Source of the DNA: a virus
Taxonomy: Duplodnaviria; Heunggongvirae; Uroviricota; Caudoviricetes
Reading direction: 5' to 3' (one strand)
Virus record (IMG/VR): IMGVR_UViG_2778261456_000009
Coordinates: 1 to 39,770 of that record
DNA: 39,770 bases
Part shown: positions 1 to 39,770 of the stretch, piece after piece
Numbering within the stretch: the first letter of the stretch is position 1
How the letters are laid out: every line of letters starts with the position of its first letter
Program-made: the position numbers and the translations under genes
The notes under the pieces: generated by a model
What the model saw: only the letters and a program-made list of their open reading frames with translations
Databases searched by the model: none
What the model was told of the DNA's origin: nothing

Positions 1-192
1 TTGGTTTCAGAAGTCAATACCTACATCAATACCCATCAGTGGCCTGGCAAAGCTGCTATTGGTCGTCTGAAAGGTGACGAGCTGGAACAATATAATTTAT
101 GGCTGGATTATCTGGACGCACTGGAACTGGTTGATACTTCCGGTGCGCCAGATATTGAATGGCCTACGCCTCCGGCAGTTCAGGCCAGATGA
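1..192 (+). CDS. Tail fibre assembly protein, C-terminal fragment (5' end outside window)
   Basis: C-terminus LWLDYLDALELVDTSGAPDIEWPTPP parallels the C-terminus of the convergent minus-strand Tfa (VLDYIDAVTATDTSTAPDVIWPELPEA); track start at nt 1 is an edge artefact. Confidence 0.55.
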   Translation: MVSEVNTYINTHQWPGKAAIGRLKGDELEQYNLWLDYLDALELVDTSGAPDIEWPTPPAVQAR

Positions 193-766
193 CGTCCGGC
201 GCGGTGCTGGTATCTGTTGCCGTCACCGCGTCAATGTAATCCAGCACAGCGTTAAGTCGGGTGTTTTCTGTCTGCGTCAGCTTCCGCCCGGCCTGCAATT
301 TCAGTTGAATCAGACTAATGGAAGCCATTGCAGTATCAATCAGTGACTGACGCTGTGCTTCTGCCGCGCCTACTGCGGCGCTATGCTGTGCTTCAGTATC
401 GGTCACCCATTTCTCACCATCCCATTCATCGTATGGCGTTAAAGGGGCGATAGTGGTTGTATTTTCAGGGTAATCACCCGGAGCTTTGATTTCTTTTGAT
501 TCTCCTGTTTCTGTGCTAAAGACGATTTCACCACGATGGTCTGGCACATATTCCCATGAGTTAAAATCTGCAGAACGGCAGATTGCATAACCAGTTTTGT
601 ATGCGCCTGGATCATCTAAACAGGAACATGCCGGAATGCCGACACCCACAGCAAGATATTCAGTTGATGTAAAAATATATTCCCGTGTTTCACCATCATA
701 GTTATAAACCGTAATATTTCCTGCTTGGGTAGCGATAAATTCGTTATTTAATACAGCGTAATCCAT
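164..766 (-). CDS. Tail fibre assembly protein (Tfa chaperone)
   Basis: 200 aa, Tfa-like conserved C-terminus; immediately downstream of the tail fibre gene; overlaps the convergent plus-strand tfa fragment by 29 nt. Confidence 0.75.
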   Translation of the reverse strand: MDYAVLNNEFIATQAGNITVYNYDGETREYIFTSTEYLAVGVGIPACSCLDDPGAYKTGYAICRSADFNSWEYVPDHRGEIVFSTETGESKEIKAPGDYPENTTTIAPLTPYDEWDGEKWVTDTEAQHSAAVGAAEAQRQSLIDTAMASISLIQLKLQAGRKLTQTENTRLNAVLDYIDAVTATDTSTAPDVIWPELPEA

Positions 767-1581
767 TATGCAGCCCTCACGATATAATTAAAGGCAATGT
801 TTCGAGGACGGTTTTCGTTTGCAGTTGGAACAACTCTGGAAGCATCAAATGTTACTCGCCTTGCATAACCACCTTTAATTGAATCAGATGAAGCATCTCC
901 GATGACGCTGGTTGTAAAAGCACCAGAATCAGAAGGATAGGAATTAAACCTGACATCCACTAATGCACCAATTATATTTCGAATGGCATCGCCCTGTGAT
1001 GAAAGCAAGCTACGGTTAGTATCAATTCCTCTTCCGTCATCCCAGCCGCGAATAAACTCACCACGTAAATCAGGCAATTTATTTGTCGGGTAAACTTTTG
1101 CCAGTTCCGGGTATTCTTCAGCAGAAAAAGCCGCACCATTGCATTTCAGCCAGCCTGTTGGCGGAGTGGCTGAAGGCCACGGAACAGGGACACCAACAGG
1201 TAATGCAGAGCCTTCTCCCAAACCAAGGTTTTCGAGAGCCGTTTTCACCGTGCCATCCGATTTGATATCACCAAACGGATTCTTGCGGCTCAGGTATTCA
1301 ACAGCAAACCCCGATCCCAGCAATTCAACAAAACCGGGCAGATCACCATTATCAAGCACATCCCGTTGCGTTTTATCACTTACAAACTGGGCCAGAGCTG
1401 CAGCAATAAAGCTGGCCTGCCGAATAACCTTATTGACTTGCGCACTGGAGGCTTTCCCTGCTGTAAATCCGGATAAAAGCGCGGGCAACGCTTCCCATTC
1501 CTCCTGCGATATAACATTGGCATTTCGATCCGTTGCAAACGCTTTAAAGTCATTTTTCGCCATCAGAGTAATACTCCCCAT
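766..1581 (-). CDS. Tail fibre protein (receptor-binding portion)
   Basis: 271 aa; N-terminal region ([15 protein letters not shown]...) typical of phage tail fibre proteins, Gly/Ser-rich distal part; position between gpI-like gene and tfa. Confidence 0.65.
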
Positions 1582-2243
1582 GCTCCTACATCAAAACCAC
1601 TGATGAATTCGTTATCCATATCAAAACCAAAAAATTTTGAGCCTTCCGATGGGGTTTCCACCGAAGGTGTTTCAATGCCACCCGCCCATACCCCGGCGGC
1701 TTTTACTGTGAGATACCCCTGTTTAATTGCCGCAATTAACTCACGCGATACATCTGAAATATCAGTATCAGGAAAGACCCAGACCGATATCGTCATGTCC
1801 TGGTTATCGACTATCTGCATTCGCAGCCCGGATCCTGCTGTTGCAGCGTCAAGAATTGCCGGAAGCGAATCATTCCGTCCGTCCCAGTTATTAATCGCAA
1901 TCTTCGCTTTAAGAATGACACGATAAGTTTCATCGCTGAGATACATGTATCCTGAATCAGGATCGTATGGTCCCTGCCATACCCCCTGATCATATCCAAG
2001 CCCGTCGGTATCCCAGCTGAAATAGACACCTGAGATAGGCTGGCTGACAACACGGCTACGTCCGATCCACAATCCAAGAATGTCAAGTTGCACACCAACC
2101 GCAGAGTCAATATCAAATGCAGTAATCAGCCCTCTGGTGGCAGCCGCAACATCAATAAGTGGCCGGGTCATCAGATCAACATGCGCAAGAAATTTAGGTT
2201 TGGTGGCGTGGTAGTTCGTGATTAGTTCGGTGTATTTGCTCAT
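1563..2243 (-). CDS. Tail protein, YmfQ/gpI-like
   Basis: 226 aa; recalled similarity to e14 YmfQ / P2 gpI-family tail proteins; follows baseplate J-like gene. Confidence 0.55.
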
Positions 2244-3439: not shown

Positions 3440-3792
3440 TACGCCTCCGATGTAACAGTCGTTATTCCATAAAGAGTGTCGATTTCAGCGGAAAACATGA
3501 CACGTCGGGTCGTGGTATCCACCGTCGTATTGAAAGAGAGGATTGATTTAACGCCCCGCGTTTCGAGGATGCGCTTACGGATCGCCAGGTTGTAGGTTTC
3601 CGGCTTCTGCTTACCGAGTACGGACTGGATCCACGGAGTCCCCTCGGTGGTGTCGAGAAACCATTGCCCATACCACAATTCGAATCTCGTTTTTACCGCC
3701 TGCGCCACGGCCTCCGGTGAGTTAATCAGCCAGGTGTCATCACCGCTGCCAAAGGTATAATCGCCATCGGCGTCTTCACGTCTGTATCGCAT
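3439..3792 (-). CDS. Baseplate protein, GP46-like
   Basis: 117 aa between spike and J-like genes; start overlaps upstream stop. Confidence 0.6.
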   Translation of the reverse strand: MRYRREDADGDYTFGSGDDTWLINSPEAVAQAVKTRFELWYGQWFLDTTEGTPWIQSVLGKQKPETYNLAIRKRILETRGVKSILSFNTTVDTTTRRVMFSAEIDTLYGITTVTSEA

Positions 3793-4544
3793 CAGTTTAC
3801 CCCATCGGTATTGCTTCCACCGCGCTGAACACCGCCATGAGTGTGCGTATCATCGATTGGCTTGCCGTTAGCCTTCACGCTACCCAAAAACTCAACAGCA
3901 CCAGTGATTTTTGAAGCCACACCAGAAACAACAGACCCCACCATGCCCCCCATCCAGGTTAACAGGCCATGAATGGTTACTTTCTCAGAAAAATCAGCCA
4001 GAGGGGCAACCACATCAAGACCACCCGGAGCGACAATTTTAATTTTCCTGGTGTCAGGATTAAGCTCAAAATAGGTGCTGCCGTCGTCACTACGCAACTG
4101 TGTGGCACTGGTATTAATACCGCTAATCTTCCTCGCCTGCGACTGGGGACCGACAATACAAAACGCATCCGATAAATCATGCATTCTGTCATCGACCGGC
4201 TCCTGTATCCCGCCACTCTGCCACCAGAAATCAATACAACGATCGGCAAAAACGACAAGACACTCATCCCCGGCTTTTACCGGAAAAGTCAACGTACAGC
4301 CTCCGCCGCGCGGGAATACCACTGGTACATCCACCAGCAATGGGTAATTTTTGGTAATGCGCTTGCCGTCATTATCCTTTTCAACCGAACGGATAGCAGG
4401 CTGCACAACTGCCGTCACCGGATCAGGATCGAATGACTGAATAATGCCAGGCAAGGCGACACGGATCTGGTTCTTTGTTGTTTCCCGTTCAGATTTGAAT
4501 GTTTCGGCAAGGTCGCCGCTGCGGGTCTGGTCAGATACTGCCAT
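3792..4544 (-). CDS. Baseplate assembly protein V (central spike)
   Basis: 250 aa; position upstream of GP46/J genes; GGAG RBS upstream of ATG at 4544. Confidence 0.65.
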   Translation of the reverse strand: MAVSDQTRSGDLAETFKSERETTKNQIRVALPGIIQSFDPDPVTAVVQPAIRSVEKDNDGKRITKNYPLLVDVPVVFPRGGGCTLTFPVKAGDECLVVFADRCIDFWWQSGGIQEPVDDRMHDLSDAFCIVGPQSQARKISGINTSATQLRSDDGSTYFELNPDTRKIKIVAPGGLDVVAPLADFSEKVTIHGLLTWMGGMVGSVVSGVASKITGAVEFLGSVKANGKPIDDTHTHGGVQRGGSNTDGVN

Positions 4545-4609: not shown

Positions 4610-5335
4610 TCAGTTTATAAGCCCCATCTTACCGGCGCTTCGATAGTTAATTACATCGCCTGAAGAGCCGCAAGGCACAGCTACAGTCGACATTTTGACA
4701 AATCCTTTACCGCCCTGCTTTTGGCATAAAGTGGCATGCATTTTTGCTAAACGCGCAGCATGACCAAAATCAATTTTGGTTCCGTAAGTTGAATCTCGTA
4801 GAGCTGCTTTTTTTGCAATTCCGGTAATATTTTTGTCTTTAATTACAGATGCAAACAAACTCAAATCATTTCCAATTTGATTGAAGCAAGTACGATTAAT
4901 ATCAACATCGGCATACGCTGAAATGCGTTTGCAATCTGAGATCTGAGAAAGCACAGATGTGTTAACCAGTTGCAAATTTAATTTGTAGTCACCGACATAG
5001 GTATAAATTTTGTTAGGGTCCGTGGTTCCCGGATAACGAGTTACGAATGGAATGCTGTTGTACGCATCTCGCAAAGATTCTGCCCCCTTACTTGTAAGCT
5101 CGTTCCCAACACCAGCAACGATAACCTCTGGATGTGAAACTTCAAATTGAGACTTTTCTTCGCGCTGTATTTGAAGCCTGCTTTTCTGGCTCTCCTCAAC
5201 TTGCTTATCGTACGCTTGTTTTTCTTCATTTTTTTGGGATAGCCATTTTTCCTGCGCTTTAGCACCATTAGGATCCCAACTACATGAAGTTAAAAAAAGA
5301 GAAAATACGATTGTGGTTATCGCAAGCCTGCTCAC
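4610..5335 (-). CDS. Lipoprotein of unknown function (moron)
   Basis: 241 aa; N-terminal signal peptide with lipobox LTSC; charged coiled-coil-like segment then globular C-terminal domain; AT-rich relative to neighbours; GTG start 2 nt after upstream stop with GAGGTG RBS. Confidence 0.75.
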   Translation of the reverse strand: MSRLAITTIVFSLFLTSCSWDPNGAKAQEKWLSQKNEEKQAYDKQVEESQKSRLQIQREEKSQFEVSHPEVIVAGVGNELTSKGAESLRDAYNSIPFVTRYPGTTDPNKIYTYVGDYKLNLQLVNTSVLSQISDCKRISAYADVDINRTCFNQIGNDLSLFASVIKDKNITGIAKKAALRDSTYGTKIDFGHAARLAKMHATLCQKQGGKGFVKMSTVAVPCGSSGDVINYRSAGKMGLIN

Positions 5336-5337
5336 TA

Positions 5338-6402
5338 TTATGCACCTCGATTCATCGCTGACTGGCTAGGAATATCACTAGCACCTCGAGCAAAGCACAT
5401 CATATCCATGTACCACGCCTGGCCCCTTGTGTCGCCAGTGTACATAATCCCGCGCACAATATAAACGCCATCCGTTGCGATGCTGGCAGGCTGCGATGTG
5501 GTGCCGCTTAGCGTGATATTTCCATCCGAGTTCTGGTCGGTGATCTGACCACCAGCCATCGCAATATCGTTGTTCGACAACGCGGTGCGATATACGGAAG
5601 CCTGATCCAGTTGAATGAGCCCATTAACCCGGATGTTCGGATTAATAAGCGCGCGGACGTTTACGCCGTTGCCGATAGTCTGCTGCGGCATGCCGATAAG
5701 CCCGGTGGCGCTGTTGAGCACAATCGCTTCATGAACATATTCGTTATTCGCCACCATCTGGCGTTGACCGTCCACGAATTGCCATGTTGCGCCACATTGC
5801 CCGGCTACGTTATCCATAAGATGCCGCGTCATGCCAAAGAGCACCCGCCCCCGGGGGAATACAGTAGCAGGCATTTCAGGCGTCAGGCCTTCGGTCGCGC
5901 CTTTGGCTTCGAAGTCTTTCATCAGCGCACGGTTCACATCAGCGACCGTGTAACCGGCAGCCAGCGTCTGTGAGGTTATACTGGTGGCAAATGCCAGATC
6001 CGTATCTGCTGCCTGAATCAGGACATAGGAATCAATAGGGCTGTCTTTTCCTGTGACCGAGTAGCGAATTTCTCCGCTGAAAATCAGCCCGTAGTTGCGG
6101 CCATCTGTCTGGCCCACGTCCGCCGCGTCAACTTCCCGCACGGTCCCTACGTCGCTTGCTGACACCTCCGGCGCGATACCGTCGTAACCGGCAATCAGAC
6201 GCACTTTCGAAAATTCCTGCCCGGTGATTCGGTTCACAGTATCTGCCGAGAGGTTATAAATTTTGATAGTCCCTACCCGGGACGCGCTGCTGATGTTGAA
6301 CCAGTCGATCGTAAAGGTGACTTTGAAATCACTTAGCTCAATTCCCTGACCGTTCCCGTTCACAAGCTGCAGCTCGAAATGTCTCATCCAGTTCTGTGAC
6401 AT
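5338..6402 (-). CDS. Baseplate hub / tail protein (Mu P or P2 gpD-like)
   Basis: 354 aa, located between tape-measure-distal small tail genes and the spike; assignment by position and size only. Confidence 0.5.
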   Translation of the reverse strand: MSQNWMRHFELQLVNGNGQGIELSDFKVTFTIDWFNISSASRVGTIKIYNLSADTVNRITGQEFSKVRLIAGYDGIAPEVSASDVGTVREVDAADVGQTDGRNYGLIFSGEIRYSVTGKDSPIDSYVLIQAADTDLAFATSITSQTLAAGYTVADVNRALMKDFEAKGATEGLTPEMPATVFPRGRVLFGMTRHLMDNVAGQCGATWQFVDGQRQMVANNEYVHEAIVLNSATGLIGMPQQTIGNGVNVRALINPNIRVNGLIQLDQASVYRTALSNNDIAMAGGQITDQNSDGNITLSGTTSQPASIATDGVYIVRGIMYTGDTRGQAWYMDMMCFARGASDIPSQSAMNRGA

Positions 6403-6404
6403 GC

Positions 6405-6707
6405 TTACTCCGTTGATACCAGTAAATGACTGCGGCCGCCCAGATCAGTTTTTGTGGGGTAATCCTGTGTGTTGTCATCGCAGACCACCACCAGCTTAAA
6501 ACCAAGTCCCATACAGGCGTACTGCGCCAGCAGATCAGCGCCAGTGACGAGAGGAATACCGGAAATTACCGGCTCCCCTCTGTCGTTCTGCAGGTCCATA
6601 ATCCAGTAAAGATCGCGCCATATGATGCTAATCTGCCAAGTGACACCACCCAGGACGATGCTGAACTGCTGGTTGTCCGCTGTCAGCGGAATTTCCTGAA
6701 TTATCAT
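6405..6707 (-). CDS. Tail protein, unknown function
   Basis: 100-aa ORF tightly packed in the tail operon. Confidence 0.45.
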   Translation of the reverse strand: MIIQEIPLTADNQQFSIVLGGVTWQISIIWRDLYWIMDLQNDRGEPVISGIPLVTGADLLAQYACMGLGFKLVVVCDDNTQDYPTKTDLGGRSHLLVSTE

Positions 6708-7294
6708 TAGCCGCCTCCCAGTAATGACGCCACGTTACCAGTGATGCTTTTCAGCAGTGAAGTATCTGGAGGCTTTGTGGTTTTGTTGCCGCTGTTCTGT
6801 ACCGCCGACGTGCTGGCCCCTTCCTTCATGTTGGTTTTATCCGCGACGGTAATCTGCTGTGTCCGGGAGATAATGACCTCCCTCAGGGTGAGGACGGCGG
6901 ACAGGACGTTTTCGGTTGTCTTGTCCGTCGTCACTTCCAGCGCCCGGATCAACATGTTGCTGTACAGCCGTTTACCGGTTACCACATCGAAGGGGATACG
7001 GCTTTCCTGCAGATCCAGTAGCTCCTGATACGTCTGCTGAGGACTCAGGCCGAGCAGGCTGGTAGCCGTCAGGTTACTGGCAAAATCCAGCAATGCGCCG
7101 CCACCGGCGAAACCAACCTCCATCACCACTTCTGACGGTTTTTTATAGGCATGATCAGCGACAGCGGCCCCGACCTCTACCGGATGCTCTGTTATTTCAA
7201 GCATATCTGTATGCTTCTCTGAAATAACAACACTGGGAACAATCATTCCTATTTTTCTGCTCTGCTGATGAAAAAGTGTAGAGAGAATATCCAC
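6707..7294 (-). CDS. Tail protein (possibly DNA-circulation-like)
   Basis: 195 aa directly downstream of tape measure gene with start/stop overlap. Confidence 0.45.
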   Translation of the reverse strand: MDILSTLFHQQSRKIGMIVPSVVISEKHTDMLEITEHPVEVGAAVADHAYKKPSEVVMEVGFAGGGALLDFASNLTATSLLGLSPQQTYQELLDLQESRIPFDVVTGKRLYSNMLIRALEVTTDKTTENVLSAVLTLREVIISRTQQITVADKTNMKEGASTSAVQNSGNKTTKPPDTSLLKSITGNVASLLGGG

Positions 7295-24570: not shown

Positions 24571-24726
24571 TTACTCCTCAGATTCGTAAGCTGTGAAGAC
24601 AGCGACCTCCGTCTGGCCGGTTCGGATTCGTACCTCGCAGAGGTCTTTCCTCGTTACCAGTGCCGTCACTATGACGGTTAAACAGATGACGATCAGGGCG
24701 ATTAACATCGCCTTTTGCTGCTTCAT
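24571..24726 (-). CDS. hok: Hok/Gef-family type I toxin
   Basis: 51 aa MKQQKAMLIALIVICLTVIVTALVTRKDLCEVRIRTGQTEVAVFTAYESEE, near-identical to recalled HokD/RelF and Gef; AAGGAG RBS. Confidence 0.85.
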   Translation of the reverse strand: MKQQKAMLIALIVICLTVIVTALVTRKDLCEVRIRTGQTEVAVFTAYESEE

Positions 24727-24783
24727 AGCCTGCTTCTCCTTGCCTTTCGGCGCGTAAGAGGCTAACCTACATGTGCAAGTCAT
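24571..24783 (-). CDS. mok: Mok-like in-frame leader ORF of hok
   Basis: In-frame 19-codon extension from ATG at 24783 (MTCTCRLASYAPKGKEKQA-), analogous to mokC/hokC in-frame arrangement. Confidence 0.4.
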   Translation of the reverse strand: MTCTCRLASYAPKGKEKQAMKQQKAMLIALIVICLTVIVTALVTRKDLCEVRIRTGQTEVAVFTAYESEE

Positions 24784-24972
24784 AGATATGGCCTCAGATT
24801 AATGTTAAGCGTCTTGCCGGACGCGTAATGTTAACTGGGGCTTTTCTCTATCTGCCTTTTGGTGTTCATGCCTGAGACAGATAGCCTCAAGCACCCGCAG
24901 CAATTCTACTTAACTCTCGCTTTACCGCAAACCGTTTTTACCCGATATGGGAATTCCCATATCGTAATGAAT

Positions 24973-26033: not shown

Positions 26034-26789
26034 TTAAACTGCCAGTTGCAATTGCATTTCAAAGCGGTCGCGTTGTTCACAATACGCAAGAGAACCAGGG
26101 CTATTGTGTGCCTCAATCCGTTCTACCATTAATGCTGCGCGTGTCTCTTTACTTGCAGGTGCATAAGCCCCAGACCAGGCTTTATCAATACCGATGTTTC
26201 GAGCGACGTTCGTACTATCTGCGCTGGCTAAGGGTAATTTTGTGAATATCAGCGGATTTAACATGCGCAATCCATGTAGTTTCGTAACCGGCTGACCATG
26301 CTCATCAACAATGTGACGAATCAGGTCTTTCATTCTGGCTACCGCAAGAGTTGGGCGCTTTACGTCATAGTCTCCACAACTACCGATAGCCACTCGCGGA
26401 AACTCATTGCACAAATGAATAAACCGCTCGTCACTTTCATTCATGTGCCACACTGGAACGCCAGATAGTTTTCCGTGAGGCCACTCATTCAGAAGCGCAT
26501 CATTTTCCTCCTCTCCGCCATCAATAACATCCGGGATAATGGCAAAATCGAATCCTGGGTGATTCTTCCAGCGAGCGACAAACTCGTAGTAATCGCTCCA
26601 GTCGATTTTGTTTTTGCCAGCTGCTTTCCAGGCGGTGAATGCACCGTTGTCCAGCGCGAACGACTGACAGTATTCAGCCGCGAGATTGATCTGTCCTGAA
26701 TGCGCAAAACTGATAAACGCATGCCGCCCTTTCCATGCTCTCATTGCGCACGTATCAGGAGTAATAGGCCCACCGTGATAGTGAATCAT
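26034..26789 (-). CDS. Conserved phage protein of unknown function
   Basis: 251 aa from ATG at 26789 with AGGAG RBS (track start 26822 is TTG); globular enzyme-like composition. Confidence 0.55.
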   Translation of the reverse strand: MIHYHGGPITPDTCAMRAWKGRHAFISFAHSGQINLAAEYCQSFALDNGAFTAWKAAGKNKIDWSDYYEFVARWKNHPGFDFAIIPDVIDGGEEENDALLNEWPHGKLSGVPVWHMNESDERFIHLCNEFPRVAIGSCGDYDVKRPTLAVARMKDLIRHIVDEHGQPVTKLHGLRMLNPLIFTKLPLASADSTNVARNIGIDKAWSGAYAPASKETRAALMVERIEAHNSPGSLAYCEQRDRFEMQLQLAV

Positions 26790-26790
26790 C

Positions 26791-27339
26791 TCACTCTCCT
26801 TTGATGCGAATGCCTGTTGCAATGCTGTTTATGATGCTGTCAGTGCATGGGGTAGAAAGCTGGGCATCTCCAGCAATTTTCATGACCTCAACATCTGCAT
26901 ATCGAATACCGAGGTGTATCAGACCGGCTATACCTGACTTAAGCCGAGCATTTTCCATAAACAGATCCTTTGCCCGCTGTTTTTCTGCCTCAAGCTCAAC
27001 GCGCAGCTTCCCTACCGTTAGCGCAATATCCTCGTTCTCCTGGTCGCGTGATTTGATGTATTGCTGGTTTCTTTCCCGTTCATCCAGTAGTGCCAGCACG
27101 GTAGCTGGGTTAACCTCTGCTATGAATTCAGCGTTTGCATAAGCCTGAGCATCTGTTTCAACCAGGCAGTTAACGTGACATTCTGCAATTACGCCACCGG
27201 GTTCTCCTTTCCATTTTTGACAAACAAAAACTCCTGTTATATTCCCATGCTGATTGACCGATGTATGCCCTACGATGTAGCTCCCTTTCGTTGCCTTTTC
27301 TGCCGCTTCACGCAGTGCCTGATAGTTAATTTTGCTCAC
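26791..27339 (-). CDS. Ead/Ea22-like protein
   Basis: 182 aa, GTG start with AGGAGG RBS; N-terminus [16 protein letters not shown] shared with neighbour paralog; coiled-coil middle. Confidence 0.55.
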   Translation of the reverse strand: MSKINYQALREAAEKATKGSYIVGHTSVNQHGNITGVFVCQKWKGEPGGVIAECHVNCLVETDAQAYANAEFIAEVNPATVLALLDERERNQQYIKSRDQENEDIALTVGKLRVELEAEKQRAKDLFMENARLKSGIAGLIHLGIRYADVEVMKIAGDAQLSTPCTDSIINSIATGIRIKGE

Positions 27340-32477: not shown

Positions 32478-32872
32478 AGGAATACCTTATTACTGGTTGT
32501 GTGAGAACTCCAGTATACCACCGAGCCTGAAGTGGTAAAAAGACAGGCGCACAACACGAAGGCGCATTTCCGGTATTCATAAAGAGTCGGTCTTGTCTGT
32601 TAAATTTAAATGGTGGGAGTGCGCCTCCGGTTGTAAATAACGACATTGCTATGTGTAGTCTTTGGCGGCATCAGTTCTACTCCGTGGCTGCCCTGCCGCC
32701 CCTTTTTAAAGTGAATTTTGTGATTCGGTGAATGCGGCTAAGCGCACGCGGCACAGTTAAAAGCATCAGTGTTATGGGTGGATTATCCGGCGTTAATTGT
32801 TAACTGGTTAACGTCACCTGGAGGCACCAGGCACCGCATCGACAAAATTCATTTGTAAAAATGGAGATAATT

Positions 32873-37230: not shown

Positions 37231-37425
37231 ATGAGATATGACGATGTTAAACCATGTCCGTTTTGTGGTTGTCCATCAGTAACGGTGAAAGCCATTTCAG
37301 GATATTACCGCGCGAAGTGTAACGGATGCGAATCCCGAACCGGCTATGGTGGAAGTGAAAAAGAAGCACTCGAACGATGGAATAAACGAACCACTGGAAA
37401 TAATAATGGAGGTGTTCATGTATAA
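37231..37425 (+). CDS. ralR: RalR (Lar), restriction alleviation protein
   Basis: 64 aa MRYDDVKPCPFCGCPSVTVKAISGYYRAKCNGCESRTGYGGSEKEALERWNKRTTGNNNGGVHV matching recalled RalR. Confidence 0.9.
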   Translation: MRYDDVKPCPFCGCPSVTVKAISGYYRAKCNGCESRTGYGGSEKEALERWNKRTTGNNNGGVHV

Positions 37426-37606
37426 AATTACCGCCACTATTGAAAAAGAAGGTGGCACTCCTACTAACTGGATAAGATATTCAAAATCTAAATTAACGAA
37501 ATCAGAATGCGAAAAAATGCTCTCAGGGAAAAAAGAAGCAGGCGTTTCCAGAGAGCAGAAAGTAAAACTGATAAATTTTAATTGCGAGAAACTTCTGTCC
37601 TCGTGA
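37418..37606 (+). CDS. ydaC: YdaC-like protein
   Basis: 62 aa MYKITATIEKEGGTPTNW...; overlaps ralR stop by 8 nt; gene order as recalled for Rac. Confidence 0.7.
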   Translation: MYKITATIEKEGGTPTNWIRYSKSKLTKSECEKMLSGKKEAGVSREQKVKLINFNCEKLLSS

Positions 37607-37706: not shown

Positions 37707-37994
37707 ATGGCAATGAATCTTGTGACACTCAAAACGTGGGGGAAACTCAGATATCCGGATAACCCACCATCAATATCAACGCTGAGACGATGGGCAAGGA
37801 ATGGAAACATTTATCCTGCACCTGAACTACACGGGAGGAGTTACAGGGTGGTTCCGGAAGCTTTCTATATCAACCCAAATAAGGTTGATACCGATATAAC
37901 ACACCATCAACCTAATGGGCGACAAGGGAGAGACGGTCCGTTACTGGAGAAGTTAAAACATGCAGCGGAAAAAATACGATCCCAATTTGCCTAA
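37707..37994 (+). CDS. xis: Excisionase (Xis-like)
   Basis: N-terminus (TLKTWGKLRYPDNPPSISTLRRWARNGNIYPAPELHGRSYRVV) parallels lambda Xis; AAGAGG RBS; 3' end overlaps int start as in lambda. Confidence 0.6.
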   Translation: MAMNLVTLKTWGKLRYPDNPPSISTLRRWARNGNIYPAPELHGRSYRVVPEAFYINPNKVDTDITHHQPNGRQGRDGPLLEKLKHAAEKIRSQFA

Positions 37995-39036
37995 AAACTT
38001 AACATATCGAAGGAGGGACAAAGCATATTACTGGCGCAACCCTCTGACGAAAGAAGAATTTACACTAGGTAAAATTTCAAGAAGAGATGCAGTAGCGCAG
38101 GCAATTGAAGCAAATCATTATATATACAAAAACTACTCTCCTGCTGCCTTAATTGAAAAACTTAAAGGGTTCGACTCATTTACTATGGCAGACTGGATTG
38201 AACGTTACAAAACGATTCTTATAAGGAGAAAAGTGTCCAGAAATACTTATAAAATTCGGGTAAATCAACTGGAGACAATAAAAGAAAAATTAGGAGGGAT
38301 TTTACTGACAGAAATAACCACTCGCCATATTGCCGAGTTTCTTGATTTGTGGATTGAAGGAGGGAAAAACACGATGGCAGGATCAATGCGTTCTGTGTTA
38401 TCTGATATGTTCCGCGAGGCCATTGTTGAAGGACGTATATCTCAAAATCCAGTAACGCCAACAAGAGCACCGAAAATAGTAGTTACAAGAGAACGGCTGA
38501 AACTAAAGACATACAACTGCATCAGGGAGGCAGCAGATCAACTTCCGGCATGGTTCCCATTAGCTATGGATTTAGCCCTTGTAACAGGACAACGTCGCGA
38601 AGACATAACGAATATGCGGTTCAGTGATATTTATGATGACCGTCTCCACATCAGGCAAATTAAGACAGGAATGATGATTGCTATCCCTCTGTCACTCAGC
38701 CTTCCTGTCGCTGGTCTACGGCTTGGTACAGTAGTTGAACGATGCCGCCTGGTAAGCCGGGGAGATTATCTAATCAGTGCCGGGATTAGAAAAAACAGCC
38801 CTGACGGCAGCATTCACCCGGATGGCCTGACAAAAAAATTTGTCGCAGCCAGAAAATTAACAGGTATCCAGTTCAGTGAAAACCCACCAACTTTTCACGA
38901 GATCAGAAGTCTGGCTGGACGATTGTACAAAGAAACATGTGGAGAAGAATTTGCCCAGCGCCTACTTGGTCACACATCGGAGAAGACAACAAAAATGTAT
39001 CTTGATGAGCGAGAAAAAACGTACTTACTGCTCTGA
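37960..39036 (+). CDS. int: Tyrosine integrase, lambda Int family
   Basis: 358 aa; alignable by eye to lambda Int (PPNL, FGLG, catalytic region with [11 protein letters not shown] and [13 protein letters not shown]). Confidence 0.9.
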
Positions 39037-39113
39037 TTTTAACGTAAATGGATTGTTAAATGTATATTGGTTGTGATATAACCAAAAAAGACCGGAATAC
39101 AGAAATTCGAGTA

Positions 39114-39133
39114 AATTTCGGGGAATTTCGGGG
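39114..39133. repeat. Perfect tandem 10-bp repeat AATTTCGGGG x2 in int-proximal att arm
   Basis: Read directly, about 80 bp downstream of int stop. Confidence 0.5.
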
Positions 39134-39174
39134 AGACGCTTGCAACTAATTGATTTTAAATACAATTAAAAAGA

Positions 39175-39201
39175 GACCGAATACGATTCCTGTATTCGGT
39201 C
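39175..39201. repeat. Hairpin GACCGAATAC-GATTCCT-GTATTCGGTC, with a direct copy of the arm at 39090-39100
   Basis: 10-bp perfect stem; AAAAAGACCGGAATAC at 39085-39100 repeats the left arm context. Confidence 0.4.
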
Positions 39202-39360
39202 CAGGGAAATGGCTCTTGGGAGAGAGCCGTGCGCTAAAAGTTGGCATTAATGCAGGCTTAGTTGCCTTGCCTTTTAAGAATAGATGACGACGCCAGGTTT
39301 TCCAGTTTGCGTGCAAAATGGTCAATAAAAAGCGTGGTGGTCATCAGCTGAAATGTTAAA

Positions 39361-39399
39361 AACCGCCCGTTCTGGTGAAAGAACTGAGGCGGTTTTTTT
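39361..39399. terminator. Bidirectional intrinsic terminator between prophage end and host gene
   Basis: AACCGCC...GGCGGTT stem with inner GTTCT/AGAAC pairing, then TTTTTTT on plus strand; on minus strand it follows the host gene stop (39429). Confidence 0.6.
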
Positions 39400-39428
39400 A
39401 TTGGAAATCAAAAGGCTATTTTAGGTAA

Positions 39429-39770
39429 TTAACAGAGTTTTTCAGCTCGTTCTATAAACGGTGCCAGACTCATTTTTTCGCCGGGATTGTTAGGATCATC
39501 AATCTGAATCACCGAAATGGGTTGGGCTTTAGTCTTCCCACTGGCAACTTCCTTTTGTGCGATATCGTTTAAAGGATACTGCACGAGGGTACTTGGGTTA
39601 ATGACATACAAAGCATTACCCGGTCTGCAAGTCAGCATCACCTCTTCGCGATTAAACGCCCATTTGTCTTTACCCACTTCAAAACGACTGACGGTAATCA
39701 CCTGCGGTGCAGCCAGCGCCGCTGCAGAACTGGTGAGTAACAGAAACGTCAGAATACTTTTTTTCATCAT
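39429..39770 (-). CDS. Small exported protein (host-like, signal peptide)
   Basis: 113 aa, cleavable signal peptide [20 protein letters not shown]; ATG at window edge; tentatively resembles enterobacterial YebY-type protein (from memory, unconfirmed). Confidence 0.65.

Follow-up and report, generated by a model that had tools for sequence, protein, structure and literature searches.

The window, by which I mean the whole stretch of 39,770 nt analysed here, is an almost complete E. coli prophage situated between pphA and ryeA/ryeB-yebY. Its right end encodes RecE/RecT, RalR/RalA, an excisionase and a lambda-type integrase, and then runs into the host SraC/RyeA-SdsR/RyeB sRNA locus and yebY. 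The occurrence of int, xis and recT together with host ryeA/ryeB and yebY at this end therefore places the prophage in the pphA|yebY interval, an insertion site that it has in common with all three of the relatives described below in which the host flank could be seen. The prophage combines a lambdoid early region with a contractile tail and a Pam3-like simple baseplate, and the cassette considered here is the last part of a late operon that appears complete, with genes for portal, capsid, sheath, baseplate and spike. According to the ORF listing and Pfam for the first 2.3 kb, the left end of the window holds the end of one tail-fibre assembly gene, a complete second one, a tail-fibre gene and a DUF2612 gene (Table 1), beyond which the next gene is baseplate J.

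Table 1. Genes and recombination features at the left end of the window, in window coordinates.
Feature	Positions	Strand	Family or basis
tfa', silent-arm tail-fibre assembly gene, 3' end (last 63 codons and TGA stop)	1-192	+	Caudo_TAP
tfa, complete tail-fibre assembly (chaperone) gene, 200 aa	164-766	-	Caudo_TAP PF02413, E=3.7e-32
Tail-fibre gene, 271-aa ORF from ATG at 1581	766-1581	-	Phage Tail Collar PF07484, E=8e-15
Fibre variable C-terminal part (Sv), aa 118-265, Collar domain; now in the expressed position	766-1212	-	
Fibre constant N-terminal part (Sc), aa 1-117; annotated ATG 1563, ORF reaches ATG 1581	1239-1563	-	
Pin/Gin-type crossover site, 26 bp; two imperfect 12-bp half-sites and a 2-bp core	1213-1238		Identity with e14
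Invertible segment as far as it lies in the window (~1.2 kb; whole segment expected to be ~1.9 kb)	1-1224		Alignment with L001
DUF2612 (baseplate wedge 1) gene, upstream of the fibre gene; context, outside the cassette	1563-2243	-	PF11041, E=3.8e-47

The two assembly genes converge and overlap tail to tail, just as the original prediction had described them; the overlap amounts to 29 nt (164-192) and both products belong to Caudo_TAP. The complete tfa encodes the chaperone cognate to the expressed fibre tip, and its ATG overlaps the stop codon of the fibre gene (TAATG). Its product is assigned to phrog_105 (tail fiber assembly) and is identical to TfaE of the K-12 element e14 at 176 of 200 residues (88%). 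The 63 residues of tfa' that fall within the window align to positions 77-130 of the 131-position Caudo_TAP profile (Pfam, E=1.4e-13), that is, to its C-terminal end only, and are 78% identical to K-12 TfaP.

The ORF of the fibre gene is longer than the gene as annotated: gene callers and PGAP place the start six codons later, at the ATG at 1563 (265 aa), which is preceded by GGGGAG and shares 1 nt with the stop codon of the DUF2612 gene upstream. The shortness of this gene had been explained by supposing that a constant N-terminal part is encoded upstream of a crossover site. This proved mistaken, since the constant part (aa 1-117) is encoded in the ORF itself, with DUF2612 as the next gene upstream. 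Assignment to PHROG families splits the protein at this boundary too, with phrog_11303 and phrog_1396 matching aa 1-122 only and the C-terminal families matching aa 103-265. The variable part shares 59% amino acid identity with the product of the K-12 stfE pseudogene.

Within the fibre gene lies a 26-bp sequence composed of TTCTCCCAAACC (1213-1224), the core AA (1225-1226) and GGTTTTCGAGAG (1227-1238). It is identical at 26 of 26 positions to the stfP-side site of the e14 P segment in K-12, and it contains CCTTCTCCCAAACCAA, the 16-nt e14 inverted repeat that is the published end of the 1797-bp P segment (PMC12529663). The site is in frame within fibre codons 109-117, where it codes for (A)LENLGLGE, and its 2-bp core falls in codon L113. 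In annotation, this fibre should accordingly be divided into Sc (aa 1-117) and Sv, and 1213-1238 marked as a recombination site. A search at up to 3 mismatches found the 26-mer in a single copy in the window, against 0 copies expected. Thus, of the 26-bp gix/hix-like repeat pair that the original prediction had suggested looking for, one member is present and the other, for which TTTTCATAAACGTTGGTTTGGGAGAA would be expected on the pin side, is absent from the window at the same tolerance. A hexamer pair, TCAAAA-N8-TTTTGA at 1621-1640, had earlier been put forward as a possible crossover site. The pair exists and is not the crossover site: it lies inside the DUF2612 coding sequence, the end-points of inversion in relatives map elsewhere, and the window contains 22 perfect 6-N8-6 inverted repeats, so that this one is unremarkable.

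Sequence similarity to other phages changes abruptly at the 26-bp site. Many P2-like phages of Escherichia, Klebsiella, Salmonella and Citrobacter match the window from position 37/40 to 1226-1237, and none of these matches any further. Phage vB_EcoM-606R2 is 99.3% identical from 1211 onward and carries a different tip.

The window is 100% identical over 2400 nt to the end of the 184-kb contig NNVU01000008.1 (assembly GCA_002485865.1), which encodes a tfa protein identical to the one in the window. The other arm of the cassette is outside our view because only 2 nt of this contig remain to the left of window position 1; another, independent assembly reaches no more than 27 nt further before it breaks as well. 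Homology to other alleles begins at about position 25-40 of the window. Of 5426 complete E. coli genomes, 2847 contain a match to the tfa/tfa' region (median 2 places each), and the contig probably stops at this place because the region is a dispersed repeat. Where parts are repeated among prophages in this way, draft assemblies tend to break inside the cassettes, and it is then easy to overlook the invertase and the silent arm. None of the complete E. coli genomes matches the window itself; the best are 94-96% identical and have another fibre tip at 817-1020. An exact-match scan of IMG/VR returned five related contigs, and a scan of the GTDB representative genomes gave no match for the window. 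I also considered a circularly permuted phage genome, in which the left end would continue at the right. This was rejected, as there is no second site or invertase elsewhere in the window and the right end consists of integrase and host DNA.

What lies to the left can be judged from seven relatives with the same tail module (L001, L002, L003, L013, L014, L015 and L016). All seven carry, to the left, a second site and a silent alternative fibre tip with its chaperone. In each, the partner site TTCTCCCAAACC-AA-CGTTTATGAAAA stands in inverted orientation approximately 1.8-1.95 kb away, and the pin-side site of the relatives is identical to the e14 pinE-side site at all 26 positions. The silent tips found in the relatives are gp53-like. 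An intact PinE-type invertase of 183-185 aa, L001 and L003 included, is present in 5/7, and the invertases of the relatives contain Resolvase (E=1.7e-52) and HTH_7 (E=5e-12) domains. In the remaining two the pin gene is disrupted and both crossover sites are kept. The invertase of phage vB_EcoM-606R2 is a 315-nt fragment, and in strain WAT pin is cut down to its first ~38 aa, which are joined to a Mom-like ORF. Going by these relatives, an intact invertase has probably been kept in this genome as well, and I infer that the second site and a working invertase lie to the left of the window. The PGAP annotation of the relatives already names pinE and tfaE.

L001 (E. coli Z1323CEC0005) contains a prophage of this type, likewise at the pphA locus. 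The order of its genes is pphA, pinE (184 aa), 26-bp site, a gp53-like tip that lacks an N-terminus of its own, a 147-aa tfa', tfa, fibre and DUF2612. Its invertase is identical to K-12 PinE at 173 of 184 residues (94%), and the C-terminus of its tfa' product agrees with the visible part of ours at 60 of 63 (95%). Its pin-side site reads TTTTCATAAACG-TT-GGTTTGGGAGAA, and this site and its partner share the core, are inverted repeats of each other and enclose, from core to core, a segment of 1886 bp.

When the L001 segment is turned round in silico from core to core, the result is an in-frame fibre of 263 aa, made up of the constant part, LENLGLGE and the gp53-like tip. The inverted junction predicted in this way (a 940-nt query) is matched along its full length, at 97-99% identity, in seven complete E. 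coli genomes. One of these, strain CD45 (L003), contains a prophage at the same pphA locus in which the whole segment is flipped: the collar tip and the 200-aa tfa are silent beside pinE, and the constant part continues into the gp53-like tip, a fusion that is annotated as a gene. In the alignment of L001 with L003, the end-points of the inversion fall within 20-bp repeats at the two sites, and the collinear flanks are 94% and 99% identical. The constant part of the fibre in the window is 99% identical to that of relatives whichever tip is attached to it (99.1% between L001 and L003 from the site onward). Both orientations are thus found among near-identical prophages, in relatives rather than within this strain, and NNVU01000008.1 runs unbroken across the crossover site, so that this assembly gives no sign of mixed orientations. 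Window positions 1-1231 also occur, at 99.8% identity, in the silent position of a different prophage (L010), beside an apparently decayed and uncalled remnant of pin.

These observations agree with what is known from experiment. Inversion of the e14 P segment in cultures has been seen by sequencing and by PCR (PMC4272514; PMC12529663), and PinE, PinQ and PinR all invert this segment in trans (PMC12529663). In addition, a systematic survey found that DUF2612 genes are enriched next to the targets of programmed inversion, with an odds ratio of 25.7 (PMC9881135). The original prediction of an invertible host-range cassette with its other arm and invertase to the left is therefore strongly supported in its core: the site is that of e14, the silent arm lies to the left in all seven relatives, and both orientations exist. 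For this genome in particular, the contig stops short of the arm in question. I consider it highly probable that positions 1-1238 represent an e14-type P segment, namely its expressed and promoter-proximal arm, in a complete E. coli prophage with a myovirus tail and a lambdoid early region.

Among known systems, the e14 P segment of K-12 (stfP-tfaP / tfaE-stfE-pinE) is like the present one in its crossover sites, which are identical, in a collar-type tip homologous to stfE and in the 29-nt tail-to-tail overlap of the tfa genes. The two differ in that e14 is a decayed remnant with what is left of a P2-like baseplate (DUF2313 and a jayE pseudogene), whereas here the late operon is apparently intact and the baseplate is of the DUF2612/Pam3-like kind. 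The constant parts of the fibres are unrelated except for ~80 nt next to the site, the last ~65 aa of the tip differ from stfE, and the collar-type arm that is silent in the MG1655 reference is expressed here. Escherichia phage 500465-1, a P2-like member of the Peduoviridae (Wadgaonvirus), shares the layout of invertase, silent tip, tfa', tfa and fibre, and is 92% identical in DNA to window positions 40-1229, a stretch comprising the end of tfa', tfa and the entire variable tip; the tip protein is almost identical. The DNA of the fibre tip (766-1212) is 92% identical to the 3' end of its gene H, and the homology stops at the crossover site. However, the constant part in 500465-1 is the ~350-aa N-terminal part of P2 gpH (in a fibre of 502 aa) as opposed to 117 aa here, and its invertase has the fibre cassette on one side and the tail sheath gene on the other, instead of standing at the prophage end.

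The G segment of Mu and the C segment of P1 are longer, at ~3-4.2 kb. It is established that these systems, with Gin and Cin respectively, also have a serine invertase and two inverted 26-bp sites, one of them in the fibre gene S (PMC9881135, PMC4272514). Like the cassette described here, they fuse a constant Sc to alternative Sv and Sv' parts and have convergent chaperone genes, U and U', although the sequence of the site and the fibre proteins differ. Salmonella Hin/hix is similar in recombinase subfamily, in the architecture of the 26-bp site and in having a Fis enhancer near one site (PMC3798978), but Hin inverts a promoter and not a cassette of coding sequence. The system is thus of the known e14 P-segment type, placed on a different and intact tail module, and nothing in it departs from the known kind.

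If the cassette works as its relatives suggest, a PinE-type serine invertase, encoded past the far end of the segment at a distance of ~30 nt, would act on it. Dimers of this invertase would bind the two inverted 26-bp sites, one of which would be the site within the fibre gene. By analogy with Hin, Gin, Cin and Pin, whose mechanism involves a Fis enhancer near one site (PMC3798978), the dimers at both sites may synapse on a Fis-bound enhancer. When a degenerate Fis motif was run against pin from L001, e14 and L004, weak hits were numerous and no pair recurred consistently at a spacing of 48 bp. Staggered cuts of 2 bp would then be made at the central AA/TT, one pair of half-sites would be rotated by 180 degrees, and the ends would be religated. 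Because the site is in frame in codons 109-117, the N-terminal 117 aa, which would attach to the baseplate, should be kept on inversion along with the late promoter, and the receptor-binding C-terminal ~148 aa would be exchanged together with the matching chaperone gene. The prophage probably makes virions with two alternative receptor-binding tips. These tips are likely to confer different host ranges, in which case a population of lysogens would release virions of both kinds.

Could the arrangement have arisen without any inversion system? The convergent tfa genes would then be a by-product of mosaic exchange or duplication of modules, and the 26-bp motif merely a conserved coding sequence (LENLGLGE). 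The motif is indeed coding and conserved in many fibre genes, and the cassette is common to unrelated P2-like phages. But the same motif is identical to a recombination site used in experiments, and in most relatives the segment has a serine invertase beside it. What separates the near-identical prophages L001 and L003, which share a locus, is a precise inversion between the two sites, and this effectively refutes the explanation. A more serious contender is a frozen relic with the anatomy of e14, whose adjacent invertase has been truncated or lost here, so that the fibre would be fixed in the collar type unless the Pin of another prophage acts in trans. The two relatives with disrupted pin that nevertheless keep both sites point in this direction, as do the apparently decayed pin of L010 and the unbroken contig at the crossover site. 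I regard this as unlikely all the same, in view of the intact PinE in most of the relatives, including L001 and L003, both of which show this arrangement at the same locus. Moreover, PinQ, PinR and PinE show that invertases of the Pin family act in trans on e14-type sites (PMC12529663), and most E. coli contain this tfa/fibre-tip sequence several times over (median of two places per genome), which suggests that other Pin-carrying prophages are likely to be present in the cell.

It might also be supposed that the switch mainly serves the lysogen, in that one orientation would give a protein derived from the fibre, which would cover receptors in the outer membrane and keep other phages, T2 among them, from adsorbing. 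This has been reported for the chimeric StfE2 of e14, which has a gp53-like C-terminal domain (PMC12529663), and the silent tips of the relatives resemble it in being gp53-like. Here, however, the cassette ends the apparently complete late operon of an intact prophage, for which a role in the virion is the simplest reading, and I consider service to the lysogen very improbable as the main function. A switch between two virion tips, worked by a PinE-type invertase, is thus the explanation that I prefer.

Tail-fibre mosaicism at crossover sites is an old idea. The 26-bp sites shared by e14, P2-like phages and prophages with a DUF2612 baseplate might, given a Pin that acts in trans, also serve as junctions for the site-specific swapping of cassettes between unrelated prophages in one cell. 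I put this forward tentatively and hold it to be rather doubtful; homologous recombination in the conserved ~80 nt around the site would give the same pattern. A swap at the sites themselves fits the sharp boundaries of homology at 1211-1237, the 99.8% identical segment in a different type of prophage and the unrelated constant parts that flank it.

The variable segment of the tail-fibre cassette also occurs in another type of prophage (int - DinI - DUF4145), in the locus L010 (GCA_006350115.1), where it lies in the silent position and is 99.8% identical to window 1-1231. The adjoining pin-like sequence, 81% identical in nucleotides to the invertase gene of L001, a prophage with the same tail module as the window, was called as a gene by no gene caller and is probably decayed. 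A replaced invertase gene was found in E. coli WAT (L013), which keeps both crossover sites but has, in that place, a fusion ORF with a Resolvase match over its first ~38 amino acids and a Mom-family match over the remainder.

The L010 contig ends within tfa', the second tail-fibre assembly gene, 27 nt past the end point of the window's contig. An imperfect hairpin lies inside tfa', and its right arm is the start of both the window and its source contig (window 1-22). In L001 (6969-7022) the arms, 6969-6991 and 7000-7022, are 78% complementary. The position of the arm at the contig start is probably coincidental with the edge of a dispersed repeat responsible for the assembly break.

At the right end, the integrase is followed by a host sRNA locus and then yebY (37960-39770). 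Because relatives carry pphA on the opposite flank, I place the insertion point in the pphA / ryeA-ryeB interval. This interval has been reported as a hot spot of horizontally acquired DNA.

In the tail region, a 241-aa ORF matched nothing in Pfam or PHROG. Since relatives hold different small genes in its place (DUF4282, hypotheticals), this looks like a variable moron slot, and one possibility is that the product is a surface-exclusion lipoprotein. A 262-aa ORF of the early region, for which a Pfam search at 1e-3 matched no family, may encode a DpdA-like DNA-modification enzyme. Finally, three small RNAs in the window matched Rfam above the gathering score.

Coordinates of the features discussed (window positions unless a locus or contig is named)
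Feature	Position	Strand	Remarks
Tail-spike gene	3792-4544		Neighbour of 241-aa ORF
241-aa ORF	4610-5335	-	Lipoprotein-type signal MSRLAITTIVFSLFLTSC
Baseplate-hub-like gene	5338-6402		Other neighbour of 241-aa ORF
sok/hok-type antitoxin RNA	24721-24896	-	Rfam
262-aa ORF	26034-26822	-	phrog_887 'queuine tRNA-ribosyltransferase', E=8e-104
DicF sRNA	32650-32701	+	Rfam
RalA antitoxin RNA	37424-37602	-	Rfam; adjoins ralR
Lambda-type integrase	37960-39036	+	Prophage right end
SraC/RyeA-SdsR/RyeB	39164-39308		Host bidirectional sRNA locus, beyond integrase
yebY	39429-39770	-	Host gene, beyond sRNA locus
Fusion ORF	L013 1144-1848		NZ_CP012380.1; annotated 'XF1762 family protein'; in place of invertase gene
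L010 variable segment and adjoining pin-like sequence	4946-5555 and 5504-6795		VESS01000117.1
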